Assembly (NCBI GenBank): GCA_903847205.1
Contig: CAINDA010000065.1
Location: 1,267-65,266 of the forward strand
Reading direction: 5' to 3'
Source of the DNA: an uncultured Bacteroidota bacterium
GTDB taxonomy: Bacteria; Bacteroidota; Bacteroidia; 2-12-FULL-35-15
Length of the DNA: 64,000 bases
The position numbers and the translations under genes were made by a program. The notes beneath the pieces are model-generated. The model worked only from the letters and a program-made list of their open reading frames with translations, was not told the DNA's origin and did not search any database. Positions 1-55,552 of this stretch are shown here, piece after piece (position 1 is the stretch's first letter; the number at the start of each line of letters is the position of its first letter).

Positions 1-1959
1 TTTGTTTCAGGAAATTTTATTGGCAACAACATCATATTTGGATCTTACACACTAACAAATCCAAATGCTGGCTCATGGGAGTTTTGTCTTGTGAAATACG
101 ATGTAACAGGTAATGTACTATGGGCAAAAAGCTCTATCGGGAAGAATAGTTGGATTAACAATATTACAACGGATGCTTTCGGGAACGTCTATGCAATAGG
201 CTCTTTTGACAGTACAATTATTTTGGGAAGTTTCACCTTAAATAGTTTAGGTGGAGACTTTTTTGTTGTAAAGTATAATCCATCCGGTGATGTACTTTGG
301 GCGAAGAGTTCTGGAGGAACAGGGCATGGCTCTGGCTCAAGTGTGGCAACCGATGCTTCAGGTGGTGTTTATGTAACAGGCAATTTTAATTCTCCTTCCA
401 TTTCCTTCGGTTCTAATACAATTATCAATAATAATCCGCCAGGTTATACAGATATTTTCCTTGCCAAGTATGATGTGTCTGGCAATGCCCTTTGGGCAAA
501 AAGCATGACGGGTGCTGGTTGGGCTAATCACGTTGCAATAGACGCTTCAGGAAATGCATATTTAGTCGGAAGTTTTTCATCTTCAAATATCACTTTCGGA
601 ACAACAACCCTTACTAATTCCGGAGGCGAAGATATTTTTCTTGTCAAATATAATTCATCTGGCAACGTACTTTGGGCGAAAAACATAGGTGGAACAGGTA
701 ATGATGAAGGGTGGAGTGTGGCTTCAGACAACTTTGGTAATTTTTATATGACAGGCATTTTTGATTCTCCTCTTATTTCTATTGACTCACATACATTAAC
801 CAATGCAGGATGCTTTGATATTTTTCTTGCCAAATATGATGCGACCGGAAATATACTTTGGGTGAAAAATGCCGGAGGCACAGGTAATGATCGCACGGGT
901 AGCGGTGGTTTGAGTATTGATGTAAGTGGTAATGCATATATGTCTGGCAGTTTCGGAGACTCTTGGTGCGGGTGGGATAGCATTACTTTTGGTTCTTATG
1001 TTTTAACAGAACCTGTTGGAACTTGGGATCCAATGTTTATTGTTAAGTATGATAAAAATGGTAATGTTCTGTGTGCTTCAGCATTAAAAAGTGGAGGAAA
1101 TGATGTTGATTTTCCAAATGCTGTTACAACAGACGCTTTTGGCAATGCTTACACTGGTGGAGATTTTGGACTTGATCCATTTGTTGTTGGTACAACAACT
1201 TTAGGGCTTTCCGGGGGAGGCGAAAATATTTTTGTTGCCAAATATACTTGCTGTGGCAATGTAACAGCTCAAATTAGCGGTAAGGATACCGTTTGCTCCG
1301 GCAGTAGTGTTGAATTAAATGCTTCAGGCGGTCTTCTTTATTCATGGAATACAGGAGCAAAGGGAGCAACTATAAATGTCATTCCAACTTCTACTACAAC
1401 CTATACATTAAATGTGACAGATAATTATGGATGTATTGGCAATGCAACTTATACTATTACTTTGAAACAATCTCCCAATGCAAGCATTTCTGGAAGCATA
1501 GATATTTTACCAGAACAAAGTACAATACTTACAGCAAACGGAGAAGGAAATTATTTGTGGAGTACAGGAGAAACTACAACTTCAATTTCGGTAACCCCTG
1601 TTGTAACATCCGATTATTGTGTAACTGTAAGCGATACAAACAAATGCTATGACAATGCTTGTGTAAGAGTTACCGTAGAAAATAAATTTGGCGTCCCAAA
1701 TGCTTTTTCGCCCAATGATGATGGGCATAATGACTTGTTCATATTACAAGGCTGGAAAAACTGCGTGTCAGAATTTACAATTATAATTTATGACCGTTGG
1801 GGAGAAAAAGTATTTGAAACTAATGACCCTACTATTGCTTGGAATGGAACCTACAATAGCAAGTTATTGGATGCTGGGGTATTTGCTTATTATATAAATG
1901 CCACTGTTATCAACGGTGAAAAAATAATTAAGAAAGGGAATATATCATTAATTCGCTAA
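1..1959 (+). CDS. 5'-truncated secreted beta-propeller (SBBP-like) repeat protein with T9SS type B C-terminal domain
   Basis: Frame 1 is open from base 1, so the gene continues upstream of the window. A ~45-aa 'SGNvLWAKssGG…G' repeat recurs about nine times, resembling SBBP beta-propeller repeats. The C-terminus ('FSPNDDGHNDLF…IYDRWGEKVFE…GNISLIR') matches the gliding-motility/T9SS type B CTD. Confidence 0.65.
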   Translation, partial: FVSGNFIGNNIIFGSYTLTNPNAGSWEFCLVKYDVTGNVLWAKSSIGKNSWINNITTDAFGNVYAIGSFDSTIILGSFTLNSLGGDFFVVKYNPSGDVLWAKSSGGTGHGSGSSVATDASGGVYVTGNFNSPSISFGSNTIINNNPPGYTDIFLAKYDVSGNALWAKSMTGAGWANHVAIDASGNAYLVGSFSSSNITFGTTTLTNSGGEDIFLVKYNSSGNVLWAKNIGGTGNDEGWSVASDNFGNFYMTGIFDSPLISIDSHTLTNAGCFDIFLAKYDATGNILWVKNAGGTGNDRTGSGGLSIDVSGNAYMSGSFGDSWCGWDSITFGSYVLTEPVGTWDPMFIVKYDKNGNVLCASALKSGGNDVDFPNAVTTDAFGNAYTGGDFGLDPFVVGTTTLGLSGGGENIFVAKYTCCGNVTAQISGKDTVCSGSSVELNASGGLLYSWNTGAKGATINVIPTSTTTYTLNVTDNYGCIGNATYTITLKQSPNASISGSIDILPEQSTILTANGEGNYLWSTGETTTSISVTPVVTSDYCVTVSDTNKCYDNACVRVTVENKFGVPNAFSPNDDGHNDLFILQGWKNCVSEFTIIIYDRWGEKVFETNDPTIAWNGTYNSKLLDAGVFAYYINATVINGEKIIKKGNISLIR

Positions 1960-2085
1960 GTTGTAGAATCACCATGAATTTCTATATTATGGTATTTTTT
2001 TTATTACGACCTTTGGTTAAAGGACTTTTAGACCGGTATACTTGGACTTTTCTCGAATTTGTAATTCGGCAGAAAAGTAAACATA

Positions 2086-2166
2086 CGCCCAACATAAAAT
2101 ATGCTATACCTTAGCCGACACGCAAAAAAGCCAACGCACGGCATCGCATATTTGACCGTTAGCGGT
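2086..2166 (+). repeat. attC-like imperfect palindrome 0 (cGCCCAAC…aaatatgc…gcatattt…GTTAGcgg)
   Basis: The 'cgcccaacat-aaaatatgc' arm pairs with the reverse complement of 'gcatatttgaccgttagcgg'. Bulged bases are present. The termini resemble the RYYYAAC / GTTRRRY attC core sites. The element is nearly identical to the one at 3712-3792. Confidence 0.55.
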
Positions 2167-2191
2167 AAGTTTAAACGACAATAGTAAATTT

Positions 2192-2944
2192 ATGGCAGAC
2201 AATAAACGAAATTGGAATCCTTTAGTTTTTTTAGTAAAACTACTTGCCAAATGCTTGCCGACAAATCAAATTGCATCGACATTTTTGATTTCATTTTTTT
2301 TGGTCTTCATTTTTTTTATTGCTATTCAACTTAAAAATCCAAACAGCTTTATTTTTAATCTTGAAATTTGTGGAGGATTATATATTCTTTTGACAGCATG
2401 TATGTTTATTAGTGCATTTTGGGGGCGAAGACAACACAAGAAAGCATTAGAAGGTAAAATATTAAGACAACTAAAAGACCTTGGTTTATCTATTGAGAAC
2501 ATTGGAGATTATTGGGGCTATGCTGGAATTATAAAAAAATATTATCTAAAAATATTCTACAATTGGTCGACAAATTTATCTGGAAGTAACAACACTAAAG
2601 AAATTTGTATTATGGTATATTATTCTTCTCCTAAGACAATAGAAAACAAACTTGATGTTAAATATTTAGACAGTTTAAATACTAAATACAAAAACCCCTG
2701 GTATGCTTCAGACAACTTTATATTAAAATTTGAAAGTGCACATATAGAAATTCATACTTGCTATAATTTGTTTACGACCTTTCAAATAATAAAAAGCAGA
2801 ATAGACCGAGCATTTGAAATATTAGAAATCGAAAAACTTTTACCAATAAGTGAAATTGAGATCAACAAATTAATAGAAAAAGACGTGTATAGGTACGGAC
2901 CTTCAATTGAAACTTTCTGGAAAGCGATGGATGCAAAGATATAA
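2192..2944 (+). CDS. Hypothetical polytopic membrane protein (putative cassette 1 ORF)
   Basis: ATG at 2192 follows a palindromic attC-like site. The N-terminus has 2-3 hydrophobic helices. I recognise no domain. Confidence 0.5.
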   Translation: MADNKRNWNPLVFLVKLLAKCLPTNQIASTFLISFFLVFIFFIAIQLKNPNSFIFNLEICGGLYILLTACMFISAFWGRRQHKKALEGKILRQLKDLGLSIENIGDYWGYAGIIKKYYLKIFYNWSTNLSGSNNTKEICIMVYYSSPKTIENKLDVKYLDSLNTKYKNPWYASDNFILKFESAHIEIHTCYNLFTTFQIIKSRIDRAFEILEIEKLLPISEIEINKLIEKDVYRYGPSIETFWKAMDAKI

Positions 2945-2954
2945 GAAAAACCTA

Positions 2955-3006
2955 CCGCTAACATTATGTAAGCGTGCGAAAAGCACGCCTACATACTCGT
3001 TAGTGG
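2955..3006 (+). repeat. attC-like imperfect palindrome 1 (ccgCTAAC…GTTAGtgg), 52 bp
   Basis: 'ccgctaacattatgtaagcgtgcg' pairs with the reverse complement 'ccactaacgagtatgtaggcgtgcg' except for one mismatch and an inserted 'g'. The loop is the short sequence 'aaaa'. Confidence 0.55.
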
Positions 3007-3081
3007 CAATAAAATCAATGGACAACAAGACATATAATAAACAGACGAGTTTAAATAAATTTCACTACAACAGAAAAAACA

Positions 3082-3675
3082 ATGAAAATGATTTACGCAA
3101 TAATCGGACTTTTACTAGTCGCTGGAGTTACTTTCTATTTAACAAGTTGCAAGAGCAAATCAACAACTGACGAGCAGACAGGACAATCGAATAAAGTTGA
3201 CCCTAAGAACAATCCATATAACGGTCTCCGGAATATGGCTTTCAGTGCGACTGCGGAGCAAATTGGAGTTCAGCTTCCTGTAGACCAAACTAAAATTTAC
3301 GGAGTAATTATGGACTGGGACGTAGGAAATGGCACAGCGACACTTGTTTCATTTCTATCAGGAGACGCAAGTTTATATTTAAGTTCAGGAGGTGGTTTTA
3401 TTGGTGGGGTGGGGCATGACAATGTAAAACAAGCAGGAGAAGCATTTATAAATAAGGCGGAAAAATATTTAGGCAAAGTAACAAAAACAGAAGAGAATCC
3501 TCTTCCTGACAAAGATGGTGTGAAATTTTATTTTCTTACTAATAAAGGAAAATTTGTTGCTCAAGAGAGTATTAAAAATTTTGAAAACAATTCTTCCGAG
3601 TGGCTTGACTTATTTGAAGAAGGGAACAAATTAATAACAGAAATTAGAATTAGTTCTGAGAAAAATGAAAAGTGA
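3082..3675 (+). CDS. Hypothetical lipoprotein (putative cassette 2 ORF)
   Basis: Signal peptide with lipobox 'YLTSC'. A polar, Gly-rich mature region follows. The ORF is bounded by attC-like palindromes. Confidence 0.5.
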   Translation: MKMIYAIIGLLLVAGVTFYLTSCKSKSTTDEQTGQSNKVDPKNNPYNGLRNMAFSATAEQIGVQLPVDQTKIYGVIMDWDVGNGTATLVSFLSGDASLYLSSGGGFIGGVGHDNVKQAGEAFINKAEKYLGKVTKTEENPLPDKDGVKFYFLTNKGKFVAQESIKNFENNSSEWLDLFEEGNKLITEIRISSEKNEK

Positions 3676-3711
3676 AATTGAGCGACCCGACAATAATAAT
3701 AAGGTTTACTG

Positions 3712-3792
3712 CCACTAACATTAAATATGCAATACCTTTGCCGACACGCTCAAAAGCCAAATGCGCGGCATCGCATATTTGATCGTTAGGTG
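3712..3792 (+). repeat. attC-like imperfect palindrome 2 (ccaCTAAC…GTTAGGTg)
   Basis: The arms 'ccactaacattaaatatgc' and 'gcatatttgatcgttaggtg' pair with each other. The internal sequence 'gccgacacgc…gcgcggcatcgca' is shared with the site at 2086-2166. The 3' end 'GTTAGGT' fits the GTTRRRY core. Confidence 0.55.
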
Positions 3793-3818
3793 TCATTTGT
3801 AAGACGACAGAATAAGAC

Positions 3819-4487
3819 ATGAATTTATACGACTGTATTTCAAAAGACGATATTAGTGGGGCGACAAAGTTGCTTGAAAAAGGTGACAACCCAAATCAAT
3901 TAGACGAACATGGACAGACTCCTCTTTTTAGAATAGTTTATAATAAAACTCCAAGACAAATGGAGTTACTAAAATTGTTTATTGACTCTGGAGCTAATGT
4001 TAATTTCGAAAGACCGGACGGAACAACACCCATCTTTCATGCAAAGGGAGAAATTGCTGAACTCTTACTTGACAATGGAGCGAAAATAGAAAAAAAATCA
4101 AAGAATGGTTCGACACCACTCCATTATTCGTTAGACGTAGACACTATAAAAATCTTTTTAAAGGCTGGACTTTCTATTAATGCCAAAGACGACTCACTTT
4201 CGACTCCATTGCATACGTATGTTTACTTTGGTAGCCAATTAGTTGAATTTGCAATTACAAATGGAGCGGACGTCAATGTCAAGGACAAATACGGTCGAAC
4301 GCCTCTTGTTTGTTTAGCAATGACAGAAGGTGCTGATGAAAATGACAATAATGATATAATCAAAACAGCTCAAATATTAATTGACGCGGGAGCCGACATT
4401 AATTCAATTGACTCGGAGAAAAAAGGAGCTATTGATCATGCTATTGAAAATGACAATTCAATGCTTGCAGACTGGTTGAGATTTTAA
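3819..4487 (+). CDS. Ankyrin-repeat protein (putative cassette 3 ORF)
   Basis: Six tandem ~33-aa repeats carry the canonical 'G.TPLH.A…G…V..LL..GA' ankyrin signature, e.g. 'DEHGQTPLFRIV', 'KNGSTPLHYS', 'KYGRTPLVCLA' and 'DAGADINSID'. Confidence 0.75.
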   Translation: MNLYDCISKDDISGATKLLEKGDNPNQLDEHGQTPLFRIVYNKTPRQMELLKLFIDSGANVNFERPDGTTPIFHAKGEIAELLLDNGAKIEKKSKNGSTPLHYSLDVDTIKIFLKAGLSINAKDDSLSTPLHTYVYFGSQLVEFAITNGADVNVKDKYGRTPLVCLAMTEGADENDNNDIIKTAQILIDAGADINSIDSEKKGAIDHAIENDNSMLADWLRF

Positions 4488-4502
4488 GGAACAAACAAAC
4501 GT

Positions 4503-4635
4503 CACCTAACAGCGCACTGGCGCTATTTGGGTATTTGAGTAAAATGATAATAGGAGTTTTTAAATTACATTTGTCTTACCGACAAATTTGATTTCAAAAA
4601 TCCCAAACAGCGCCAGTGCGCAAAACGTTAGCAGC
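4503..4635 (+). repeat. attC-like imperfect palindrome 3 (cacCTAACagcgcactggcgct…agcgccagtgcgcaaaacGTTAGcagc), ~133 bp
   Basis: The ~30-bp arms are reverse complements with bulges. The left arm 'ACCTAAC' fits RYYYAAC. The arm sequence is very similar to the site at 5296-5394 and is followed by the shared tail 'CAGCAAGGCAA'. Confidence 0.55.
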
Positions 4636-4661
4636 AAGGCAATCGCAGACCGACACATGAC

Positions 4662-5282
4662 ATGAAATATAGACCGACACCATTAAATATTGTTTGTGGA
4701 CTTGCAATCGGACTTGCAATTTATTCTGCCGTAAAACCTGGACCTGAAGGTTGGGGTTTCTTAATGACAATATATCTCATTCCTGTAATTGTTATCGGAC
4801 TGTTAGCTGACTTCATTTTACAAAAATTTCTTCCCAAATATCTTCTGACATTTGTAATTGAACTTTTGCTTTTAACAGTTATTTACTTTGCATATTGTTG
4901 GACACAGCGAGCTAAAACACTTATCATACCTGATAAACTGCAAAGCCAATATGTTGTGACAATCTATGGTGTAGAAAACTCAGCAAAACTTCCAGACGGT
5001 TGGAACTACGAAATTAAAGTGCCGACTAACGGTATTCTATTGACTTCCTCAACCTTTGACAGTGACTTATCTGAGACAAAAATGAAAACTTACTCAGGAA
5101 TTAACCTTAACTCAGACGAGACAGAATTAGGTTGGGTAAGAATAACACATGACAAGTTTGACTGCAATGGTAAGACTTATGAATATCAATTTTGGATGGT
5201 GGACAGTTCTTGTTGTACGTATTCCAATCACGACATTGACAGTTTTAAAATAACTTTACAAAAACAATTCTGTGGACGATAG
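4662..5282 (+). CDS. Hypothetical membrane protein (putative cassette 4 ORF)
   Basis: Three N-terminal hydrophobic helices precede a Cys-containing soluble C-terminal region. The ORF is flanked by the nearly identical attC-like sites 3 and 4. Confidence 0.45.
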   Translation: MKYRPTPLNIVCGLAIGLAIYSAVKPGPEGWGFLMTIYLIPVIVIGLLADFILQKFLPKYLLTFVIELLLLTVIYFAYCWTQRAKTLIIPDKLQSQYVVTIYGVENSAKLPDGWNYEIKVPTNGILLTSSTFDSDLSETKMKTYSGINLNSDETELGWVRITHDKFDCNGKTYEYQFWMVDSSCCTYSNHDIDSFKITLQKQFCGR

Positions 5283-5295
5283 ATTAACATGCCCA

Positions 5296-5394
5296 GCTGC
5301 TAACAGCACATTTGCAATAGGCGGGGTTTCGTGCTCCGCATAAACATTAGTGGTAAAAATCCCGCCCATCGCAAATCTGCAAAACGTTGGCAGC
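5296..5394 (+). repeat. attC-like imperfect palindrome 4 (gctgCTAACagcacatttgc…gcaaatctgcaaaacGTTGGcagc)
   Basis: The arms are reverse complements with a 'gtttt' bulge. The 3' end and tail 'aaaacgttggcagcaaggcaa' is nearly identical to that of site 3. Confidence 0.55.
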
Positions 5395-5416
5395 AAGGCA
5401 ACTAAAAAAAAACAAA

Positions 5417-6207
5417 TAATGAGACAATTATTATTACTTATTTTTTATTCCACATCGACCATTCAACTTTCAAATGCGCAAGACAATAAATTTTTATTAT
5501 CAGGAAATACTACCGACTGTAAGACACATAAAAATATCAAAGGAGTAGAATTAAAATTATTTTGCAGTGACGGGCGCACTCTTGAGACATTTTCGGACTC
5601 CTTGGGTAGTTATTACTTCGACAGCTTTTTACTAAAAAAAAATATGAAATATGTCGTAACCACTGAGGTAACACGAGATTTAGGATATATTAATAGCTCT
5701 GGTAGATACAAATTTGGAACCTTCGACAGCGTTTCAAATAAGAATATAAAACAAGATTTCTGTTTGGTGCGAATAGAGCCCTGTACACTTGGTACTTTTA
5801 GAATATATTTTAAAAAAAATAGTGAAGAAAAATATTATGTCGACACATTGAGTATGGATTTAGAATCATATATAATGTTTATGAATGATAACCCAAGTTT
5901 CGTTATTGAAATTAACTCCAATTGTAGCTTTGACGAAAAGAATCCAGATTCGCTTTCTAAGAAACGAGCTGAATATTTAAAAAATATATTAATCAAAAAA
6001 GGAATAAATAAAGACAGAGTAGTTATTAAAGCATTGGGAATTAAACACCCTTCAGTAACCAAAGACCAAATTAATAAATTCCAAAGTTTAAAAGAAAAGG
6101 AAGAAGCAAACAGGAGCAATAGAATAGTGTTTTTCCAAATTATTAGAAAGGACTTTCCTGTTGACAACAAATCACAAAAAATTATTGATACAAACGACAC
6201 AGAATGA
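5417..6207 (+). CDS. Secreted OmpA-like C-terminal domain protein (putative cassette 5 ORF)
   Basis: The start was moved from the ORF-track position 5350, which lies inside the palindrome, to the ATG at 5417. That ATG gives a signal peptide 'MRQLLLLIFYSTSTIQLSNAQ'. The C-terminal 'LSKKRAEYLKNILIKKGINKDRVVIKALGIKHP' resembles an OmpA peptidoglycan-binding domain that lacks the GHTD motif. Confidence 0.5.
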
Positions 6208-6506
6208 AGATGGAGTGTGTTACGACCGCAGGGTTATTAAAGTTTTCAGGCAAGACCTGTGAGTAATAAGACCGGAGCGTGTTACGACCGAAGGGTTTTT
6301 AAAGTTTCTCGCTACGGCCTGCGCGTATTAAGACCGGAGCGTATTACGACCGAAGTGTTTTTAAAATTTTTCGGTAAGACCTTTGTGTATTTAGACCGGA
6401 GCGTATTTCGACCGCAGGGTTTTAAGTTTTTCGTTAAGACCTATGTGTATTAAGACCGGAGCGTGTTGCGACCGAAATGTTTTAATGTGTTTCGTTAAGA
6501 CCCCGG
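6208..6506. repeat. Five tandem copies of a ~61-bp repeat (consensus ~TAAGACCGGAGCGTGTTACGACCGAAGGGTTTTTAAAGTTTTTCGGTAAGACCTGTGTGTAT)
   Basis: Direct reading shows five head-to-tail units at roughly 80-90% identity with no unique spacers. The array starts directly after the stop codon of the last cassette ORF. Confidence 0.8.
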
Positions 6507-6658
6507 TAGGCGCGAAGTTGAGGGTAGATAAGAGGGAAGATACTTCGTGTCATTAATAAAAGGTAAGCTGTGCTTACCATACACAGCGCGTACATTTCCC
6601 GTTAAGCAGTATATCCAACTCCGCTTAATTTAACCTGCATCCAGCCGAAACACTCAAA

Positions 6659-7189
6659 TTATATTTTTACTCCTTCTTTATTTCCAGGCATCACCCCATT
6701 CCCAATCCCGCAATTCTTTAAAGCCGGAAAAAGCATCGGAGCAATTTTCCCGATAGGCTTGTATAATAATGACTGCTCTTTCATTTTAAATGAAACAACA
6801 GGATAACTTTTTTCAGCTGCATCCATCACAAAAATAATTACACTCAGTACCAAAGCAAATTTTAATGCACCAAATAATGCACCTATTATTTTATTTATAA
6901 AACCCAAAGCCATCCCTTCAACCAGGCGCTGTAAAAGCTTCCCGATAAAATATACAGTGATAATAATTAGTAAAAATACAAGAGCAAATGAAATTATGGG
7001 CAGGTAAGGGGAAGTCCAGTTGAGCCATGCGCTTAACTTACGGGCAGTTAATTCAGATAAATGAATACCGCCCCAAATGCCCAGCCCGAATGCAATTAAT
7101 GAAGCAGCCTCTAAGATAAGTCCTTTTGTAAAGCCTTTATAAAGCCCCCAAACCAGAGGGATGCAGAGAAAGATATCGATGTAATTCAT
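6659..7189 (-). CDS. cvpA: CvpA family membrane protein (colicin V production protein homolog)
   Basis: Starting at the internal Met gives 'MNYIDIFLCIPLVWGLYKGFTKGLILEAASLIAFGLGIWGG', a typical CvpA N-terminus. The protein has four TM helices. Confidence 0.7.
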   Translation of the reverse strand: MNYIDIFLCIPLVWGLYKGFTKGLILEAASLIAFGLGIWGGIHLSELTARKLSAWLNWTSPYLPIISFALVFLLIIITVYFIGKLLQRLVEGMALGFINKIIGALFGALKFALVLSVIIFVMDAAEKSYPVVSFKMKEQSLLYKPIGKIAPMLFPALKNCGIGNGVMPGNKEGVKI

Positions 7190-7424
7190 ATTCAGCTTTT
7201 GTTCTGTTTTGCTTCCTGCTATATGCAAAGAAGGAAGAGGTGTTTTATTTTAAGTGCCTTCCGGTTACTGAATCAAAAATATATTCATTAAAATTTTATT
7301 TTGAAGCAACTAAATTGCTTCAGCAGGCATCAATAAAACAAAGAAAATAAATAACAGGTTCTGAATAACACAAACAACAAAAACTTATTAAAAACAAATT
7401 GTTGCTTATTAAAAAATATACTTT

Positions 7425-27241: not shown

Positions 27242-30200
27242 ATGAAAACTAAAATTTTTACAGCACTATTCCTTATATTTATTTTAAGCTCTTCGGTTTT
27301 TTCCCAGACTGTTAATGTTACCATTGTTTATAACGGCGCTCAGGGATTGGGGTGCTGCGATGTATGCGGTACGGATTATACATGTATAAACAATATCGGG
27401 GGATGCGGGACTAATGCTCCTTGTTTGAACAGAACTTTTTCTGACCCGGTGCCGGCAGGAAACATAATTACCGGAGTAACTGTTTCTGATTTTGCCGTTT
27501 GCGGAGGATCAAGCCCGGTTTCCAATGTGTCTTCGTCCATCAATGGTGTAGCAATTGGTACAACAGCTGTTCAGGGTGGCTGCCAGTGCGGCGGATGTAA
27601 TAATCAGGTTATGGCAAATACTTTTCCTTGCCCAACGGGACTTTCAAGTTATAATTACGGAGGCAACAATACATTCAGACTTTGCCCTAACGGCGATTAT
27701 TGTATTCAAAGAGCAGTTATAACTTTTACTTATACCCCTGTTTCTATTGCACCTACCGCAGCAACTGCAAACCCTAATCCATCATGCGGAGGCGCTGTAA
27801 CGTTAAATAAGGTTGGCGGTTCTCTGGGTTTTGGTGCAGTCTGGAAATGGTACTCAGGATCTTGCGGAGGCGTACTAGAGGGAACAGGCGCATCCATTGT
27901 TGTTACGCCATCGGCAACAACTACTTATTTTATTAGAGCTGAAGGCGGTGGCTGTGGTACCACACCCTGCGTCAGCGTTACTGTTACAATGAATACTCCT
28001 TCAACTGCGCCAGTCTCCGCCACAGCAACGCCAGCCGTAACATGCGGCGGTGCAACAACATTAAATGTAACCGGCGGTTCATTAGGAACCGGTGCATCAT
28101 GGAAATGGTATTCCGGGTCTTGTGGCGGGGTGTTTGAAGGAACAGGTTCTACTTTGTCTGTGTCGCCCTCAGTAAATACAACTTATTACGTAAGGGCCGA
28201 AGGTACCTGCAATACCACTCTTTGTGTTTCGGTTGCAGTAACTGTAAATCCGGTTCCTTTTGCTATTGCTACACCATCCAGCGCCGCATTTTGTTCTGGT
28301 GGAACCACCGCAATTGCATTAAGCAGTTTTACTCCTGGTACAACTTTTGCCTGGACTATTTCTCCATCAGGAATCACAGGAGCATCGGCCGGTTCAGGAG
28401 CATCAATAGCGCAGACATTAACAAATTCAGGAGCATCTCCCGATTCTGTTGTTTATACTATTACTCCTACAGCGAACAGCTGTATTGGAACCCCGATAAA
28501 CGTTAGAGTGGTTGTAAATCCCGTTCCAGTGGCATCTATTACACCGGCCGGTGCCCAAACAATCTGCGCCGGAATAGTTCTTGGCCTTGCTTTAAACAGC
28601 AACGCGGCAGGAACAACCTTCACCTGGACTGTTGTATTAACAAATGCCGCAGGAGGGCATAATGGCTCAGGAACTGCAATTACTGATACTTTAACTGCTA
28701 CTGGTGGAGGGAGCGGTACTGCAATCTATACCATAACTCCAACTGCTAACGGATGTCCGGGCATTCCAATTTCGGATACAATAACAGTTAACCCCGACCC
28801 AGGTGCTACAGCTGCTGCCAGTCCCATTGTATCAACGATTTGTTCTGGAACAACAACTTCAATATCCTTAACCAGTGTTGCGATAGGTACAATATTTACA
28901 TGGACTGTAACTCAAACTGGAGCTAACGGAGCAACTCCAGGTACTGGAGCAACTATTGCGCAGACATTAACAACCGGGACAATACCATCAACAGTTGTTT
29001 ATACAATTACTGCGACTGCAAACGGCTGTACAGGAAATCAAATAACTTCCACATTAACTGTAAATCCAATTCCGGTTCTTACTGCAACTCCTGCATCGCA
29101 GACATTTTGTTCAGGAGGTACTACCGGAATTGCTTTATCAAGCAATACTGCGGGCACTACTTACTTTTGGTCAGCCAGTGAAACTGGTGTTACAGGTGCT
29201 GTTTTCGGGTCAGATACTTCTATTGTTCAGACATTATCCACAACCGGAATCACGGGCGGTACTGCAGTTTATACAATTACTCCAACAGCAAATGGATGTT
29301 CAGGGAATGCAGTCAATGTTACTATCACTGTAAATCACAGGGATAATGCATCTTTTGTTTATTCATCGGCAACTTACTGTCTGTCGGGAAATAATCCTAC
29401 TCCAATAATTACCGGACTCCCTGGTGGTGTTTTTTCAGCGGTTCCAGCTGGCTTGTTGATTAATTCTGCAACAGGGACAATCAACCTTGCCGGAAGTTCA
29501 CTTGGATCATATACATTAACTTATAGAACTAATGGCATTTGTCCTGATTCAAGCAGTATTACAATGACTATTGATAATTCTACTCCATTTGCGAATTTCA
29601 CTTATCCTGCTTCACCTTACTGCCAGAATGGAACTGATCCGTTCCCGGTTTTTGGTACTGGTGCAAGCGCAGGTGTTTTTACAGTGACCCCAATCGGCCT
29701 GGTATTTGATCATATTAATACCGGACAGATTGATTTATCAGCGAGCGCACCCGGCACCTATACTGTTACAAACCACATCCCTGCAAGCGGTAATTGCGAC
29801 CCGGTAGTTGCATCCTCAACAGTTACTATAACAGTTGCTGATAATGCTTCTTTTGTTTATACATCAGCAACCTATTGTCAGTCTGGAACGCCCCAGACAC
29901 CGGTTGTTACAGGGATTCCCGGCGGTGTGTTTTCAGCTGTGCCGGCAGGTCTTGCAATTAATCCATCAACCGGAACTATCACTTTATCAGGAAGTGCCTG
30001 GGGTTCTTACACGCTGTCTTATCTCACAAATGGTCCTTGTCCCAACACGAGTTCAATAACTATGACAATTGACAGCATAACACCTTCCGCAATTTTTACT
30101 TATGGAGCTGCTTCTTATTGTCAAAACGCAAATGATCCTTCGCCGATTTTTGGTTCTGGAGCAAGTGCAGGGATCTATTCCGCAACTCCGGCTGGTTTGG

Positions 30201-32395
30201 TATTTGTCCATGTTAATACCGGACAGATTGATTTATCTGCGAGTGCGCCTGGAACATACACAGTTACCAATACAATCCCGGCAAGCGGTTCATGTCTCGC
30301 ATTAACGGCAACAACAACTGTTGTTATCAGTCCATCCGATAATGCCTCATTTTCCTATACTTCAGCAACCTATTGCCAGTCTGGAACTAATCAAACACCT
30401 TCTATTACCGGTTTGCCGGGAGGAGTTTTTTCTGCTGTTCCGCCGGGCCTGGTAATTAACTCTGCCACAGGCATCATTAATCTGGCTGCAAGTGCCGTAG
30501 GATCATATACTCTTACCTATACAACAAACGGTTCCTGCTCTAATTCGAGCTCAATTATAATGACAATTGATAATACTACCCCATTTGCGAATTTCAGTTA
30601 TGCAGGCTCTCCCTTCTGTCAGAACACAGGTAACCCTTATCCTAGTTTTGGCCCGGGTGCAAGTGCCGGAATATTTTCAGCTGTCCCTGCCGGTTTAGTT
30701 TTTGTTCACGTTAATACGGGACAGATCAATTTATCAGCCAGTGCTCCGGGTACATATACTGTTACAAATACCATCCCTGCAAGCGGTTCCTGCCAGGCGG
30801 TAATTGCAACCACAACAATTGTGATAAATCCTGCGGATAATGCCTCTTTCTTTTATCCTTCTGCAACCTATTGCATATCAGGAACGCCTCAAACGCCCAC
30901 TATTACTGGTTTGCCGGGTGGTGTTTTCTCAGCGGTGCCGGCAGGATTATCAATTAATCCGGCAACCGGCACAATTACTTTGTCCACTTGCACTTTGGGG
31001 GCATATACGCTTTCTTATACAACTAACGGTAACTGTCCTGATACTAGTTCCATTACAATGACCATTACAAATACTACACCTTTACCTGATTTTACTTATT
31101 CGGGTTCGCCTTTCTGCCAGTCTGGGATTGATCCATATCCAATTTTTAGTGCTGGTGCCAGCGCAGGAATATTTTCAGCTGTTCCTTCAGGTTTGGTTTT
31201 TGATCATGTTAATACCGGGCAGATTGATTTATCATTAAGTGCCCCTGGCACATACACGGTAACTAATAACATTCCTGCGAGCGGTACATGCAGTGCAGTT
31301 AGTCATACGTATACTGTAATTATTAATCAGGCGCCTACAGCGATCGCCACACCTTCCTCTCAATCATTTTGCACCATCGGAACAACACCTGTCCCGCTGA
31401 CTATTGCGCTCACAAGTAATATACCTGGTACAACTTTTTCGTGGACAGTTACTCATTCTGGACTTAATGGAGTAACGCCAGGTTCTGGGTCTTCAATTAC
31501 CCAGACAATCTCGCTTACAGGAGCAGGTCAAGGTACAGCTTCATATACTATAACACCTAATGCGAATGGCTGTGTCGGTGCACCTACAATTATAACCGTA
31601 ACAGTTAACCCAAAACCTGTAATTGATACTGTGGCTTTAGTAATTCTGCCTGCAAACTGCGGCACCGCAACCGGCGCCATAACCGGTATAACGAATGTTT
31701 CAGGGCAGGCGCCTTTAACCTATCAATGGAAAGATTCGCTAGGTAATCCGGTCGGAAACAGTATTGATTTAAACAATGTAATTCCAGGCCGATATACTTT
31801 AACTGTTACCGATGGAAATAATTGCACAGTTTCTGCCGGCCCTGTGATCCTGCCTTCAACAACGGCGGTATTTGCTGCATTTACTCCAAATCCTTCCACC
31901 GGTGAAACTCCGCTTACCGTTAACTTTACTAATAACAGCTCCGGAGCAACTCATTATATCTGGCAGTTTGGTGATGGCCTTAATGATACATCATCTGCTT
32001 TAAATCCATCTCATGTTTATCTTCCGCTTGGGAAATTTACTGTTTGTTTGACTGCGATAAGTGCTGCTAATTGTATAGATACAGCTTGTTCAAAAATTGA
32101 TATTTATCTTAATTCAGTATTTGTGATCCCTAATATTTTTACTCCTAATGGCGATAATATTAATGATATGTTTACCGTGAAGGCAATAGGTCTGAAAACA
32201 ATGGATGCACAGATATTTAACCGCTGGGGCGAAAAAATGTACGAATGGCACACGACTAACGGAGGCTGGGATGGCTATACAGCCAGCGGTGTTGCTGCCT
32301 CGGAAGGGACTTATTATTTTATTATAAAAGCAAGCGGAATTGATGGGAAAGAATATTTTGAAAAAGGAAATTTCTCTCTTATCCGCGGCAAGTAA
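27242..32395 (+). CDS. Giant SprB-like cell-surface adhesin with T9SS type B C-terminal domain (1717 aa)
   Basis: Signal peptide, then a Cys-rich N-terminal head and more than 15 Ig-like ~80-aa modules of two alternating types ('…TITPTANGC.G.P…VTVNP' and 'DNASF.YSSATYC…GLPGGVFSAVPAGL'). An SprB-type repeat 'CGTATGAITGI…PLTYQWKD…TLTVTDGNNC' and a PKD-like segment follow. The CTD reads 'IPNIFTPNGDNINDMF…FNRWGEKMYEW…GNFSLIR'. Confidence 0.8.
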   Translation: MKTKIFTALFLIFILSSSVFSQTVNVTIVYNGAQGLGCCDVCGTDYTCINNIGGCGTNAPCLNRTFSDPVPAGNIITGVTVSDFAVCGGSSPVSNVSSSINGVAIGTTAVQGGCQCGGCNNQVMANTFPCPTGLSSYNYGGNNTFRLCPNGDYCIQRAVITFTYTPVSIAPTAATANPNPSCGGAVTLNKVGGSLGFGAVWKWYSGSCGGVLEGTGASIVVTPSATTTYFIRAEGGGCGTTPCVSVTVTMNTPSTAPVSATATPAVTCGGATTLNVTGGSLGTGASWKWYSGSCGGVFEGTGSTLSVSPSVNTTYYVRAEGTCNTTLCVSVAVTVNPVPFAIATPSSAAFCSGGTTAIALSSFTPGTTFAWTISPSGITGASAGSGASIAQTLTNSGASPDSVVYTITPTANSCIGTPINVRVVVNPVPVASITPAGAQTICAGIVLGLALNSNAAGTTFTWTVVLTNAAGGHNGSGTAITDTLTATGGGSGTAIYTITPTANGCPGIPISDTITVNPDPGATAAASPIVSTICSGTTTSISLTSVAIGTIFTWTVTQTGANGATPGTGATIAQTLTTGTIPSTVVYTITATANGCTGNQITSTLTVNPIPVLTATPASQTFCSGGTTGIALSSNTAGTTYFWSASETGVTGAVFGSDTSIVQTLSTTGITGGTAVYTITPTANGCSGNAVNVTITVNHRDNASFVYSSATYCLSGNNPTPIITGLPGGVFSAVPAGLLINSATGTINLAGSSLGSYTLTYRTNGICPDSSSITMTIDNSTPFANFTYPASPYCQNGTDPFPVFGTGASAGVFTVTPIGLVFDHINTGQIDLSASAPGTYTVTNHIPASGNCDPVVASSTVTITVADNASFVYTSATYCQSGTPQTPVVTGIPGGVFSAVPAGLAINPSTGTITLSGSAWGSYTLSYLTNGPCPNTSSITMTIDSITPSAIFTYGAASYCQNANDPSPIFGSGASAGIYSATPAGLVFVHVNTGQIDLSASAPGTYTVTNTIPASGSCLALTATTTVVISPSDNASFSYTSATYCQSGTNQTPSITGLPGGVFSAVPPGLVINSATGIINLAASAVGSYTLTYTTNGSCSNSSSIIMTIDNTTPFANFSYAGSPFCQNTGNPYPSFGPGASAGIFSAVPAGLVFVHVNTGQINLSASAPGTYTVTNTIPASGSCQAVIATTTIVINPADNASFFYPSATYCISGTPQTPTITGLPGGVFSAVPAGLSINPATGTITLSTCTLGAYTLSYTTNGNCPDTSSITMTITNTTPLPDFTYSGSPFCQSGIDPYPIFSAGASAGIFSAVPSGLVFDHVNTGQIDLSLSAPGTYTVTNNIPASGTCSAVSHTYTVIINQAPTAIATPSSQSFCTIGTTPVPLTIALTSNIPGTTFSWTVTHSGLNGVTPGSGSSITQTISLTGAGQGTASYTITPNANGCVGAPTIITVTVNPKPVIDTVALVILPANCGTATGAITGITNVSGQAPLTYQWKDSLGNPVGNSIDLNNVIPGRYTLTVTDGNNCTVSAGPVILPSTTAVFAAFTPNPSTGETPLTVNFTNNSSGATHYIWQFGDGLNDTSSALNPSHVYLPLGKFTVCLTAISAANCIDTACSKIDIYLNSVFVIPNIFTPNGDNINDMFTVKAIGLKTMDAQIFNRWGEKMYEWHTTNGGWDGYTASGVAASEGTYYFIIKASGIDGKEYFEKGNFSLIRGK

Positions 32396-33072: not shown

Positions 33073-36000
33073 TTGAATATGAAAAATAAAATTTTTATAA
33101 GCCTATTTTTGTTAGTTGCTGCAAGCTGTTCGGTTTTTTCACAAACAGCAAACACCACAATCACTTATGGAGGCTTTCAAGCTTGCGGAGGCTGTGACCT
33201 TTGCGGAGCAGACTATTGGTGTGTTAACTCTCAGCCCAGTTACTGCGGTAATACTGCGGCCTGCAGAACGGACAACTTTTTTGACCCTGTACCGGCAGGT
33301 AATATAATTACTGGTGTAAGCATAGTATTCTGGGCTGAAGATGGATGGCCGGGGGCATGTTCAAGTGTAAATACGTCAATAAATTCTGCAGTAATCGGAA
33401 ACGGGGCAGTGTCTTCCTTCAGTCAGTGTTCTACCTGTACCAGTCTCACATTGAGTAATTCTTATTCCTGTCCTACAGGTTTGCCAGGTTACAATTACGG
33501 AGGTAATAATGGATTTACACTCTGCCCTAATGGCTCTTTTTGTATTCAAAGAGCTGTTATTACTTTTACTTATACTGTGGCATCAGTAGCTCCGACAGGA
33601 GCAACAGCAAGCCCTAACCCGATTTGCTCAGGGGCTGTTACATTGAACAGGATTGGCGGTTCACTTGGTACCGGTTCATCATGGAATTGGTACTCCGGCT
33701 CTTGCGGAGGAACATTCGTAGGAACTGGTTCTTCTATTAGCGTTTCGCCCGCATCAACCACAACTTATTATGTTAGAGCTTCCGGCGGATGCGGTACCAC
33801 TGCATGTGCGAGTGTGACTGTTACAGTGAATACACCTTCTTTACCACCTACATCTGCAACAGCAAGCCCAAATCCAACATGCGGGGGTGCAACTACCTTG
33901 ACGGAAGTGGGCGGGACACTTGGTTCTGGTGCAGTTTATAACTGGTACACTGGAAGCTGCGGCGGTTCTTTAGTCGGTACTGGAGCCAGTATTAGTGTGT
34001 CTCCATCATCTACAACTATCTATTATGTATTAGCGTCAGGCACATGTAATATAACTCCATGCGCAACGGTTACGGTAACAGTTAATTCTTTTTCAACGGC
34101 CCCTTCTTCAGCATCTGCAAGTCCAAGCACTGTGTGTGCAGGAGTTGCTACAACCTTAACTGAAACTGGCGGTTCCTTAGGTGCGGGAGCCATTTATAAT
34201 TGGTACTCGGGAAGCTGCGGGGGGACCTTAGTTGGAACTGGGCCCTCCATTTCGGTTAGCCCGTCATCTACTACAAACTATTATGTAAGGGCGCAGGGAA
34301 CATGCAATACTACTGCTTGTGCTATGGTTACAGTAACTGCAAACCAAGTTCCTTTTGCAACTGCAACGCCGTCGGCTCCCACTATATGTTCCGGAAATGC
34401 TACTGCCATTGTTTTGAATAGTTTTACACCGGGCACTTCATTTTCCTGGACTGTTACTCAGTCAGGGGTTACGGGTGCTGTGGCAGGTAATGGTGCTACT
34501 ATAGCCCAAACATTGTCGGTTTTAGGAACAACTCCAGGTACTGCCACATATACTGTTACCCCTGTCGCTGCAGGCTGTATAGGTTTTCCAATTACCGTTG
34601 TAGTTACTGTCAATCCAATTCCCGTTGCCACGGCGACTCCTGCAACTCAAACAATTTGTTCTGGGGCTGCCCCTGCTATAGTATTAACAAGCAATATTAC
34701 AGGTACATTATTTAATTGGACTGTTGTTCAGACAGGAGTGTCAGGAGCCAGCACTTCAAGCGGTTCGACAATTGCGGATGTGTTAACAGCGACGGGAGTA
34801 ACTGCAGGAACTGCTGTTTATTCGGTTACGCCCGTAGCGGGCGGATGTCCGGGAATTCCGATTACGGTTACTATTACTGTTAATCCTTCTCCAATAGCAA
34901 TTGCAACACCATCATCACAGACATTTTGTTCAGGGAGCACAACCGGCATAGTTTTAACAAGCAATGTTGCAGGTGCATCGTTTACTTGGACGGTGGTTCA
35001 AACTGGCGTTTCAGGCGGAGCTCCAGGAACTGGCCTCACAATTGCGGATGTTTTAAACACTACCGGCTCATCTGCAGGTACTGCAGTTTATACTATAACA
35101 CCATCAGCAAATACCTGCCCAGGAACACCAATTACAGTTACCATAAATGTGAATAAAATGGATTCAACTTCATTTTCTTATTCAGCAACTACTTTTTGCC
35201 AGACTGGAGTTGATCCTGCACCCACAATCACTGGTTTACCCGGAGGAGTATTTTCCTCAACAGCAGGTTTAGTTTTTATTAGTACTGCAACCGGATTAGT
35301 CGATTTAAGTTTGAGCACACTTGGTACCTATATTATCACTTACGCAACAAATGGTATTTGTCCTAATACCGGAACTCAGACTTTAACTATTACTGGTGCT
35401 CCTGCGGCGGGCTTCAGTTATCCAGCTTCACCTTTCTGCCAATTCGCAGCAAATCCTTCTCCGACTTTTGCGGCTGGTGCATTTGGCGGTGTTTTTTCAT
35501 CATTGCCTGCGGGTTTATCTTTTGTAAATACAAATACTGGAGTAATAAATTTATTAACAAGCCTTCCTGGAACGTATACTATAAAAAATGTAATTGCAGC
35601 AAGCGGGGGCTGTGCAGCTGACAGCGCTACTTCAACTGTTACAATAAATCCCACTCCCATTGCGACTGCCACTCTTTCTCCAGATACTATCTGTTCAGGT
35701 ACTGCGACTTCAATTGTTTTAGGCAGTTCTTTAGCCGGTACAAGCTACGGCTGGACTGTTGTTCAGACTAATGCTGTTGGAGGTGCAACAGGAGGCGGTC
35801 CGACAATAATTCAAACTCTCACAACTACTGGAGCTGGGGCCGGAACTGTGGTATATTCCATCACACCGACTGTCGGAACCTGTATAGGAAGCCCAATCAA
35901 AGATACGGTTACGGTTAACGCTATTACAATTGCTACAGCAACACCTCCTACTCAGGCGTTTTGTTCGGGCGGTACTACAGCTATTGCATTAACGGGGAAT

Positions 36001-39000
36001 ATTCCAGGAACAACTTTTACCTGGGCAGCCAGTGAGTCTGGAGTTACAGGTGCATTGTTTGGTTTCGGCAATACAATAGCGCAAACTTTAACAGCGGCCG
36101 GGACCAGCCCTGGAACTGCGGTTTATACGGTAACACCATCTTCAAACGGATGTTTAGGAAACGGTATAAATGTTACAATTACTGTAAATCCAGCTGACAA
36201 CTCTTCATTCAATTACACTTCAGCGACCTACTGCCAGTCCGGAAGTCCTCAATCACCTTCAATTACTGGTTTACCCGGGGGAGTTTTTTCTTCAGTACCT
36301 GCAGGCTTGTCAATTAATGCTTCTACTGGAACTATTAATTTATCGACTAGTGCTTTAAATGCATATACACTTACCTATACAACAAATGGAATCTGCCCGA
36401 GTTCGACTTCCATTATTATGACAATTACCAATAGTAATCCGAGTGCTAACTTCAGTTATCCTGGTTCTCCTTTCTGCCAAAATGGAACCAATCCTCACCC
36501 AGTTTATACAGCAGGATCGAGTGCAGGAATTTTTTCTGCGGTTCCAGCAGGTTTGACATTTGTTAACCTGAACACCGGCGAAATTAACTTGGGATTAAGT
36601 GCACCTGGGGTTTATACCGTTACAAATACGATACCTGCGAGCGGGACATGCCTCGGGACAAGTGCTGTAACAACAGTTACCATTACACCTTCGGATAATG
36701 CGGCTTTTTCTTATACTTCAGCAACCTACTGTATTTCCGGACCAAATCAGAGTCCGACAATTTCTGGGCTGCACGGCGGAACTTTTCATTCAAGCCCTGC
36801 AGGTCTGGCTATTGATACAACCACCGGGGTTATTAGTCTTTCAACGAGTGTTTTGGGCACATACGTACTTAGTTATTCTACACACGGACCCTGCCCGAAT
36901 ACAAGTTCAATACTTATGACAATTGACAGCGTATCTCCATCAGGTGATTTTCATTTTTCTAACGTTTCTTATTGTCAAAATGCAAGCAATCCTTCTCCTG
37001 TTTTTAATTCAGGTTCAAGTGCAGGTTCATTTTCTTCAACTCCGTCAGGCTTGGTTTTTGTACAAATCAATACAGGGCAGATTGATTTAGCAGCCAGCGG
37101 TCCCGGCACCTATATCGTTACAAATACTATTCCAGCCAGCGGTAACTGTTCAGCATCCGTTACTACAGCTACTGTAACCATAACACGTTTGGATAATGCA
37201 TCATTTGTGTATTCTTCAGCTACCTACTGCACAACCGGCCCAAATGAAACACCAACAATCACTGGTCTTCCAGGCGGCGTATTTACATCAACGCCTGTCG
37301 GGTTATTGATCAATCCGGCAACAGGAACAATAAATTTAGCCGGAAGCGCTGTTGGTTCATACATCCTTTCTTATACTACAAATGGAGCCTGCCACAATAC
37401 TAGCCATATAACAATGACTATTACAACCAATACGGTTTTTGCAAGTTTCAGTTATCCCAGCTCTACGTATTGCCAGAATGGAACTAATCCTTTCCCGATT
37501 TTTGCTGCCGGAGCAAGTGCTGGTGTATTTACAGTTACACCTATCGGTTTGGCATTTGTTCATATTAATACAGGACAGGTTGATTTGGCAGGAAGTACGC
37601 CAGGTACCTATACTGTTACGAATACAATTCCGGCCAGCGGGGGCTGTGCAGCAGTGGTTGCTACCAGCACTATTACTATTTCTCCTTCGGATAATGCATC
37701 GTTTTTCTATCCTTCTGCAACCTACTGTACCACAGGAACACCTCAAACCCCTACAATTACGGGACTTGCGGGAGGTACGTTTTCATCAACACCGGCAGGC
37801 TTAAACATTAATCCGGCAACGGGAGTGATTACTTTAACGTCGAGTGCATTGGGAGTATATACTTTAACCTATACAACAAACGGCTCTTGTCCGAATTCAA
37901 CTTCAATAACGATGACCATTACCAATACTACACCATTTGCTAATTTTGGTTATCCGGCTTCTCCATTCTGCCAGAATGGAGGAAATCCTTTTCCGACTTT
38001 CGGACCGGGAGCAAGTGCGGGGATATTTACATCCGCTCCGGCAGGATTAGTATTTGTGCAGGTTAATACGGGTGAGATAGATTTGACTGCTTGTACTCCC
38101 GGCACATACACTGTTACCAATACTATACCTGCAAGCGGTACCTGCGGTGCTGTAACAGCAACAACTACGGTTGTTATCGGTGCGTCCGACAATGCATCAT
38201 TTGTATATTCTTCTGCAACTTATTGTTTAACGGGCCCCAATCAGACGCCTGTAATTACTGGTTTGCCGGGTGGTGTTTTTTCATCAATTCCTCCGGGCTT
38301 ATCTGTTAATCCGGCAACCGGAGCTATTGATTTAACAACAAGTTCAGTGGGAGCCTATACTCTCAGGTATTCAACAAACGGTGCCTGCCCAAATACCAGC
38401 TCCATTGTAATGACAATTACCAACAGCCCTAATTTGGCAGGATTCAGCTATGCGGGTTCGCCATACTGCCAAAATGCGGCTAACCCTTATCCGACATTTG
38501 TTTCCGGTGCAAGCGCTGGATTCTTTACAGCTTCGCCTGCAGGGCTGGTATTTATACATGTGAATACGGGACAGCTTAATTTATCTGCAAGCACACCCGG
38601 AACTTATACGGTTACTAATACAATTCCCGCTGGCGGCGGATGTGCTGCAGTTACCGCAACAAGTACTGTTACTATAACAGCTGCAGATAATGCTGCCTTT
38701 ACCTACCCATCGGCAACCTACTGTACTTCAGGTAACCCTCAGACACCAACAATTACCGGCTTGCTGGGAGGTACGTTCTCAGCAATACCTATCGGCTTAG
38801 CGCTTAATCCGTCTACCGGAACTATTAATTTAGCACTAAGCGCCCTTGGTGCGTATACGCTTACTTACACAACTAACGGTGTATGCCCGAATTCAAGTTC
38901 GATAACGATGACAATTACAAATACAACACCGTTTGCAAGTTTCAGCTATCCTGCATCACCTTTCTGCCAGCTTGGAAATAACCCTTTCCCGACTTTTGGT

Positions 39001-55346: not shown

Positions 55347-55552
55347 TCAAATTTGACCAGCTCCGGCCAAATACGACCAGCGTCCTGCCAAAATTGCCTG
55401 GCTCCGAGTGAAAATTGACCAGCTCCGAACGCAAATTGACCAGCTCCGAATGAAAAATGTCCGGCTCCAAATGAAAATTGACGGGCTCCGAGTGAAAATT
55501 GACCTGCTCCGAATGAAAATTGTCTGGGTCTGAATGAAAATTGACCGGCTTC
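55347..55552. repeat. ~10 tandem degenerate copies of a 21-bp repeat (consensus ~TGAAAATTGACCAGCTCCGAA)
   Basis: Direct reading shows the units 'caaattgaccagctccgaatg', 'aaaattgacgggctccgagtg', 'aaaattgacctgctccgaatg' and so on. The array abuts the stop of the minus-strand AAA gene. Confidence 0.8.

Follow-up and report, generated by a model that had tools for sequence, protein, structure and literature searches.

A probable integron-type cassette array without a nearby integrase between atpG and cvpA of an uncultured freshwater Bacteroidia bacterium

Is a run of small same-strand genes separated by long imperfect palindromes, found near one end of a 64,000-nucleotide stretch of contig CAINDA010000065.1 (assembly GCA_903847205.1, an uncultured Bacteroidota bacterium; the whole stretch is referred to as the window), an array of integron cassettes in a phylum where these are seldom reported? 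A first-pass annotation, made from the sequence alone, had read it as an integron-like array of cassettes in which no integrase was visible. Integrons are rare in the complete genomes of Bacteroidetes, where only In0 elements were found at first and one complete integron is present in Salinibacter ruber; Bacteroidota have been cited among the clades in which earlier work had found no integrons, and the 11 taxon-specific models of the attC recombination site include none for this phylum. We examined the window together with 6.2 kb of upstream DNA (locus L002), which amounts to ~70 kb, or ~21% of the 338-kb scaffold. The two sequences are 100% identical where they overlap, and L002 positions are converted to window positions by subtracting 6182. 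[quoted passage not shown] The core of the initial proposal is borne out by a chain signature that connects neighbouring sites, by the absence of the island in relatives, and by the presence of one cassette gene in other contexts. The array is not a complete integron, and it matters mainly for the rarity reported in the phylum and for sites that are built unlike the textbook ones.

Complementary ends of neighbouring sites

Seven palindromic sites, named B, C and S0 to S4, delimit the cassettes. Their coordinates run from AAC to GTT in window numbering (B and C are in L002 numbering), and hairpin strength is expressed as the z-score of the minus-strand fold relative to shuffled sequence.

Site B, L002 4955-5095: YAAC...GTTRG palindrome.
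Site C, L002 5566-5735 (GTT 5733-5735): YAAC...GTTRG palindrome; fold z -2.9.
Site S0, 2091-2160 (AAC 2091, GTT 2158; with flanks 2087..2164), plus strand: GCCCAAC...GTTAGCG; z -1.05; weak hairpin with a 6-nt bulge.
Site S1, 2960-3001 (with flanks 2956..3005), plus strand: CGCTAAC...GTTAGTG; z -5.6; at 42 nt (AAC to GTT) the shortest of the sites.
Site S2, 3717-3787 (with flanks 3713..3791), plus strand: CACTAAC...GTTAGGT; z -2.1; 6-nt bulge.
Site S3, 4508-4629 (with flanks 4504..4633), plus strand: ACCTAAC...GTTAGCA; z -7.25; 122 nt from AAC to GTT.
Site S4, 5302-5388 (with flanks 5298..5392), plus strand: TGCTAAC...GTTGGCA; z -5.7.

The attC-like core layout described in the first-pass annotation is present in every site, as all seven are bounded by YAAC...GTTRG, which fits the RYYYAAC and GTTRRRY core sequences. 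In integrons the crossover occurs between the G and TT of the 3' core, and the start of a cassette therefore carries a sequence that pairs with the one in front of its own site. For all pairs of sites, the 14-nt stretch that follows each GTT was compared with the 14-nt stretch leading up to each AAC, the latter as its reverse complement. Seven consecutive junctions are complementary at 10-12 of the 14 positions, and the remaining 43 site pairs score 2-9/14, with a mean of 5.7. The first junction matches site B at 11/14. The best score, 12/14, belongs to the junction from site C to S0, which spans a gene for a type IX secretion system (T9SS) cargo protein; this 2.6-kb segment is therefore itself a cassette, and the T9SS gene, which had been taken for the flank of the array, lies inside it. 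Class 1 arrays read from plasmids (aacA4, blaVIM-2, arr-3, dfrA27 and aadA16) served as a control, and in them 8-12 nt at the start of a cassette can pair with the R'' side of that cassette's attC.

The same signature was searched for outside the array with a scanner that combines a simple AAC...GTT hairpin search with the chain test. Related DNA was represented by an AtpG-based set of genome neighbours, comprising 80 loci around atpG from species-representative genomes (1.3 Mb in total). The scanner recovers a six-link chain in the array; outside it, across the 57 kb that make up the rest of the window and the 1.3 Mb of related loci, it finds isolated chance pairs and no multi-link chain. Because chained sites are missing from both, the palindromes are not dispersed repeats. 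The first-pass annotation had itself raised the possibility of repetitive extragenic palindromic (REP)-like elements scattered across the genome, and this check disposes of it in the DNA covered. We conclude that the complementary ends record the insertion of cassettes through crossover at the core triplet.

The array begins 2.26 kb upstream of the window rather than at position 1960, where its start had been placed, and it contains at least eight cassettes. The upstream DNA holds two further sites, B and C, with small plus-strand open reading frames (ORFs) between them, and a first junction at L002 3922 (GTTATCAGCAATAAT) in which the GTT half is present with no palindrome to its left (z +0.99). 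Nine ORFs, all on the plus strand, occupy the eight cassettes. Cassettes with both ends defined measure 640-1171 nt, plus one of 2607 nt. The units that reach into the window, and the features that follow them, are:

448 nt upstream of the window to 2158 (2607 nt), plus strand: T9SS cassette with a 693-aa T9SS cargo gene, CHU_C domain (Pfam E=1e-17), the 3' part of the gene being at window 1..1959.
2159..2999 (841 nt), plus strand: cassette with ORF 2192-2944, 250 aa, predicted membrane protein, no Pfam family; ends complementary at 11/14.
3000..3785 (786 nt), plus strand: cassette with ORF 3082-3675, 197 aa, lipoprotein-like, no Pfam family.
3786..4627 (842 nt), plus strand: cassette with ORF 3819-4487, 222 aa, ankyrin-repeat protein (Pfam Ank_2 E=6.5e-36).
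4628..5386 (759 nt), plus strand: cassette with ORF 4662-5282, 206 aa, predicted membrane protein, no Pfam family.
5387..6207, plus strand: last cassette-like unit with ORF 5419-6207, 262 aa, signal peptide, weak OmpA-like match; no site after it.
6212..6502, no strand assigned: tandem repeat of a 62-nt unit, 4.7 copies with 82% matches, adjoining the end of the last cassette ORF, at the place expected for its attC.
6503-6658: right boundary of the island.
6659-7228, minus strand: core gene cvpA (Pfam Colicin_V E=1.5e-25).

All five plus-strand ORFs of the first-pass annotation are present, four of them at the coordinates it gave; the start that it proposed for the fifth, 5417, is out of frame and the right one is 5419. 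Its product assignments fared unevenly. Pfam confirms the ankyrin-repeat protein, the OmpA match of the last ORF is sub-threshold (24.9 bits, compared with a Pfam cut-off of 27.2), and the membrane and lipoprotein character of the others is read from their sequences, which belong to no Pfam family. The 693-aa T9SS-secreted protein is an unusually large cassette cargo. None of the nine cassette ORFs has the Bacteroidetes -7 promoter motif TAnnTTTG in its own 5' leader, and the only two matches to this motif within 200 nt upstream of cassette ORFs are located inside S2 and S3. In the 62-nt repeat, each unit holds a small inverted repeat, ACCGAA...TTCGGT. Outside this tract the window has no copy of the repeat, nor do the fetched loci, and a kinship with short motifs that flank the T9SS gene was considered and rejected, as the resemblance is below BLAST significance.

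The 10.7-kb island that contains the array sits between atpG and cvpA. In the AtpG set, its nearest relatives are freshwater "Bacteroidia" metagenome-assembled genomes (MAGs) with 84-86% AtpG identity, and more distant loci come from Vicingaceae, Crocinitomicaceae and other Flavobacteriales. In L005 and L007, the closest relatives with enough sequence (AtpG 84-86%), cvpA follows ~180-200 nt after atpG. Nucleotide homology to L005 ends at L002 2152 and restarts at 12920, and the 80 atpG loci contain no close homologs of the cassette genes, weak T9SS-domain matches being the only ones detected. Because atpG and cvpA are adjacent in the relatives, homology is broken between 2152 and 12920 and the cassette genes lack close homologs, these ~10.7 kb are an insertion. 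Conserved synteny, which the first-pass annotation had named as a sign of ordinary chromosome, is thus not what the closest relatives display. Besides the eight cassettes and the 62-nt tandem repeat, the island contains 415 nt of non-coding DNA and three minus-strand ORFs of 204, 134 and 83 aa that have no informative Pfam match. Tandem repeats of 41-42 nt are present inside the 83-aa ORF, at L002 3300-3480; they are placed between the 204- and 134-aa ORFs and the first junction, which is the usual position of intI and attI.

Architecture and folding of the sites

Each site contains an internal imperfect inverted repeat, with a stem of 14-28 positions, 1-4 mismatches and a span of 42-170 nt from AAC to GTT. 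There are 0-3 nt between AAC and the stem and 1-6 nt between the stem and GTT, a short and asymmetric spacer. Folding is strong in four of the seven sites (z -5.5 to -7.25), intermediate in site C (z -2.9) and weak in S0 and S2. S3 forms a 20-position stem with a single A.C mismatch and a big terminal loop. By comparison, the five class 1 sites that we read share a uniform layout that consists of R'' (7), a spacer (5), 3 bp, a bulge, 6 bp and a second bulge. The first-pass annotation had described bulged bases in the present sites and suggested looking for two extrahelical ones; folding revealed no single-base bulges, and the irregularities in the stems are mismatches and, in S0 and S2, a 6-nt bulge.

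The sites are heterogeneous. S0 and S2 are 87% identical and form the near-identical pair that had been described. A second such pair, S3 and S4, was overstated, as these sites are 51% identical overall and reach 81% over 47 nt at the R' end. With the exception of S0/S2, pairwise identity within the array is 23-56%. The similarity of S3 and S4 extends past the presumed crossover point: positions 4596-4642 and 5355-5401, which comprise the right halves of both sites and the first 13 nt of the next cassettes, are 81% identical. The start of the 4628-5386 cassette matches the start of the next cassette at 14/16, as compared to 10/14 for the complement of its own R'' side.

Two features of the stems bear on the strand that is recombined. 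The nine A/C-type stem mismatches are all oriented alike on the plus strand, with A in the left arm and C in the right, and these pairs become G.T wobbles on the minus strand. In addition, the minus strand folds as stably as the plus strand, or more stably, in all five window sites. On account of both features, the minus strand is probably the folded substrate. The cassettes appear to have the canonical orientation, an ORF followed by its own site, since at the first junction a GTT half is retained and a palindrome is missing, which is what insertion at an attI-like or attG-like point would leave. The orientation put forward in the first-pass annotation is thus favoured both by this junction and by the strand asymmetry. 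In textbook integrons it is the extrahelical bases that enforce strand choice and cassette orientation (PMC5027507). Because the present sites are without such bases, they make the strand-choice rule directly testable on natural sites.

A cassette gene shared with other loci

The 197-aa lipoprotein-like protein has 463 homologs in metagenomes. Those with a named source come from Chitinophagales, Saprospiraceae, Fluviicola and Pedobacter, and one is labelled as a Nitrososphaerales archaeon. The other cassette genes of the present array adjoin the homolog in none of ~20 distinct loci. Complementary GTT.../...AAC ends are kept around it in five loci, where they match at 10-11 of 12 positions, a score reached in at most one of 200 shuffles. 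This one cassette thereby links the array to cassette contexts in contigs labelled as Saprospiraceae and in unlabelled metagenome contigs.

Several of these contexts are themselves arrays. In L089 (3570-19360), ~25 same-strand ORFs between bamA and truB include the 197-aa homolog and are accompanied by long YAAC...ACGTTRG sites. The L089 sites share the internal motif AAAATTCGTTTCTTTAAC; the array opens with a palindrome-less first junction 130 nt after bamA, has a truncated site at its truB end, and contains no integrase within 10 kb. Saprospiraceae arrays with the homolog carry toxin-antitoxin, acetyltransferase and Fic genes separated by ~220-nt repeats. These repeats are homogeneous (L087 7181-7398 and 9711-9932; L088 3033-3252, 4265-4484, 9604-9823 and 10986-11211), and L087 and L088, which are from two Saprospiraceae assemblies, differ by one cassette block. 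A further homolog has a same-strand tyrosine recombinase of 415 aa upstream of it, at a distance of 8.6 kb. Integrons with an inverted integrase are known, and this arrangement recalls them.

Exact boundaries are found in the pair L097 and L098. These contigs have in common a unit of 745-754 nt (L097 3263-4016, L098 2405-3157) that is 99.5-99.7% identical, starts exactly at GTT and ends exactly at AAC; it has unrelated palindromes on both sides, and the surroundings of the two copies differ. Exchange at both ends could follow if bulge-less sites recombine on either strand, a suggestion drawn from this one contig pair. Since the unit conserved across loci stops at both GTT and AAC, the co-conservation of gene and site does not fix the orientation of the cassettes. 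In L106 and L107, the breakpoints of a rearrangement fall at neither AAC nor GTT and are therefore uninformative.

Origin of the array and its relation to known systems

A number of results weigh against an integron-type array. No IntI1-like match was obtained by tblastn at E<=1 in the ~70 kb examined, using an IntI1 query that was checked and is 100% identical to plasmid intI1. No recombinase domain was detected by Pfam in the 27 ORFs scanned, which include those left of the first junction and only a minority of the window ORFs beyond ~23 kb. Neither an attI nor a cassette promoter (Pc) was identified at the array, and most of the related arrays have no integrase within 10 kb. The canonical class 1 attC layout is absent, the sites having mismatches in place of single-base extrahelical bulges. 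A surrogate attC covariance model assigns a score only to S1 in L002, of 9.3 bits (E=2.8, filters off). The last cassette has no site, and the R'' sequence expected for it (GTTGCCTTGCTGCCAAC) was not found downstream, where the best match is 12/17 and far away; the succession of ORF and site, which had been described for every cassette, thus fails at the last ORF. Finally, the palindrome downstream of the unit common to L097 and L098 does not travel with the gene, contrary to what canonical recombination of the bottom strand only would predict.

The surrogate model deserves some qualification. It was trained on five class 1 sites. It detects canonical attCs that were not used in training at 46.2 and 21.6 bits, and reaches only 13.9 bits for the full-length version of a site that it had been trained on in trimmed form; with default filters it has no match in the window at E<=10. 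Because the model is narrow, its result denotes a difference from class 1 sites and not a rejection by IntegronFinder.

Three candidate recombinases in other loci were examined and set aside. The tyrosine recombinase at L037 11089-12177, in a Flavobacteriales MAG, is XerA-like (NF040815, 222.6 bits; TIGR02249, 211.8 bits, under the cut-off of 265) and has no adjoining cassettes; two large ORFs, of 438 and 613 aa, come after it. Its gene lies 1.6 kb downstream of atpG, and the region after atpG may be a recurrent insertion spot. An IntI1-like match at L087 13192-13317 is a degenerate 42-aa C-terminal fragment with an in-frame stop, 52% identical to IntI1 residues 274-315. The fragment occurs right after the last cassette-like ORF of the Saprospiraceae array and before type III CRISPR-Cas genes. 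In L119, a serine recombinase heads a run of same-strand ORFs whose intergenic regions have no attC-like features. In the window itself, Rfam returned no matches at gathering thresholds and a scan for transfer RNA and transfer-messenger RNA genes found none. Its remainder includes two very large plus-strand ORFs (27242-32395 and 33073-40239, of 1717 and 2388 aa) and, at 55390-55550, an intergenic 21-nt tandem repeat in 7.7 copies (AAAATTGACCGGCTCCGAATG) that precedes the gene at 55555-58161.

How could such an array have arisen? If it is of integron type, a tyrosine recombinase that is encoded elsewhere in the genome, or has since been lost, would recognise the palindrome as a single-stranded hairpin and exchange strands at the conserved triplet, between G and TT. 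The base of its own hairpin stem would then remain with each inserted cassette, divided into a half at the cassette start and a half before its site. The first junction would represent insertion at an attI-like or a genomic secondary (attG-like) site, the distal end would have eroded to leave the last cassette without a site, and the array is probably sedentary now. It may be a decayed integron or may have grown from a secondary-site insertion.

A possible, if somewhat unlikely, variant of the second origin is that the array was never part of an integron platform at this location. According to this account, a trans-acting integrase would have inserted the first cassette at an attG (5'-GWT-3'), and later ones would have been added beside it. 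The first junction at L002 3922 is consistent with such an event, as it pairs with the R'' side of site B at 11/14 and has neither a hairpin (z +0.99) nor an integrase remnant to its left, and the L089 array likewise opens with a palindrome-less junction 130 nt after bamA. An attG route to isolated cassettes and small CALINs has been described (bioRxiv 10.1101/2022.09.11.507474). However, an attG insertion should leave an intact distal site and none is present, and eight cassettes are a large number for this route. Moreover, the three minus-strand ORFs and the 415 nt of non-coding DNA occupy the usual place of intI and attI, which is compatible with an intI that has been lost.

Greater departures from known integrons were also considered. 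It is unlikely, in our estimate, that Bacteroidota have their own lineage of integron-like arrays, in which sites lack extrahelical bases, exchange occurs at GTT or AAC (on either strand), an adjacent integrase is usually missing, the recombinase is perhaps non-canonical or acts in trans, and the arrays are largely invisible to attC models. If such a lineage existed, it would explain the nearly integron-free reputation of the phylum. If arrays of this kind, with their atypical sites, are common, the exchange of genes by way of cassettes has been under-counted in an ecologically dominant phylum. We consider it quite unlikely that the present array represents a distinct and as yet undescribed Bacteroidota cassette system, whose attC-like hairpins without extrahelical bases would be used on either strand by a non-IntI recombinase and be missed by standard tools. 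The site architecture is indeed unlike that of class 1 attC, and six of the seven sites receive no score from the surrogate model, but attC is known to vary between taxa (PMC8352920) and the model is confined to five class 1 sites. The L097/L098 unit is bounded exactly by GTT and AAC between unrelated palindromes, but exchange at both ends is deduced from a single contig pair. Integrases are absent near most related arrays, and the sole adjacent tyrosine recombinase, of 415 aa, is on the same strand as the cassettes, but this protein has Pfam domains that are also found in IntI. Few integrons have been reported in complete Bacteroidetes genomes, and the 11 taxon models of attC omit the phylum. 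Against a distinct system, the AAC and GTT triplets, the hairpins, the chimeric ends and the cassette sizes are all as IntI-type recombination yields. That the locus is ordinary chromosome, its palindromes being terminators or REP-like repeats with no cassette mobility, is hardly credible. S0 and S2 do fold no better than shuffled sequences (z -1.05 and -2.1) and no recombinase is present, but chain complementarity is specific to neighbouring sites, neither the remainder of the window nor 1.3 Mb of related loci contains such sites, relatives do not have the island, and a cassette gene recurs elsewhere with the same complementary ends.

The integron-type reading can be compared with four known kinds of element. 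A CALIN is defined by two or more attC sites, spaced by at most 4 kb, and by the lack of an integrase within 4 kb (IntegronFinder, 2016); the spacing and the absence of an integrase found here agree with this definition, the sites having been judged without IntegronFinder calls. Like a CALIN, the array consists of co-oriented short ORFs, each with an RYYYAAC...GTTRRRY palindrome, and has chimeric junctions, sites less than 4 kb apart and no integrase. Unlike a CALIN, its sites are without single-base extrahelical bulges or a 5-nt/5-6-nt unpaired spacer, its distal cassette is siteless and its host belongs to the Bacteroidota. With sedentary chromosomal integrons, such as the Vibrio superintegron and that of Xanthomonas next to ilvD, it shares a location flanked by core genes, cassettes whose function is mostly unknown and subfamilies of related sites; it differs in that no intI, attI or Pc was found in the DNA examined, in having only eight cassettes and in its heterogeneous sites. 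Class 1 cassettes resemble those of the array in the 8-12 nt over which their start is complementary to the R'' side of their own attC, and the R'-proximal spacer of aacA4 (TCAAAC before GTTAG) is similar to those of B, C, S3 and S4 (CAAAC or AAAAC before GTTRG). They have the fixed class 1 layout with bulges, whereas the present sites have variable short spacers and mismatches. Lastly, the single attC sites lacking integron-integrases (SALIN) that result from attG insertion (Loot et al., bioRxiv 10.1101/2022.09.11.507474) are likewise chromosomal, lie away from an integrase and have a GTT half-site first junction with no palindrome. They comprise one cassette with an intact terminal site, in contrast to the eight cassettes and siteless distal end of the array between atpG and cvpA.

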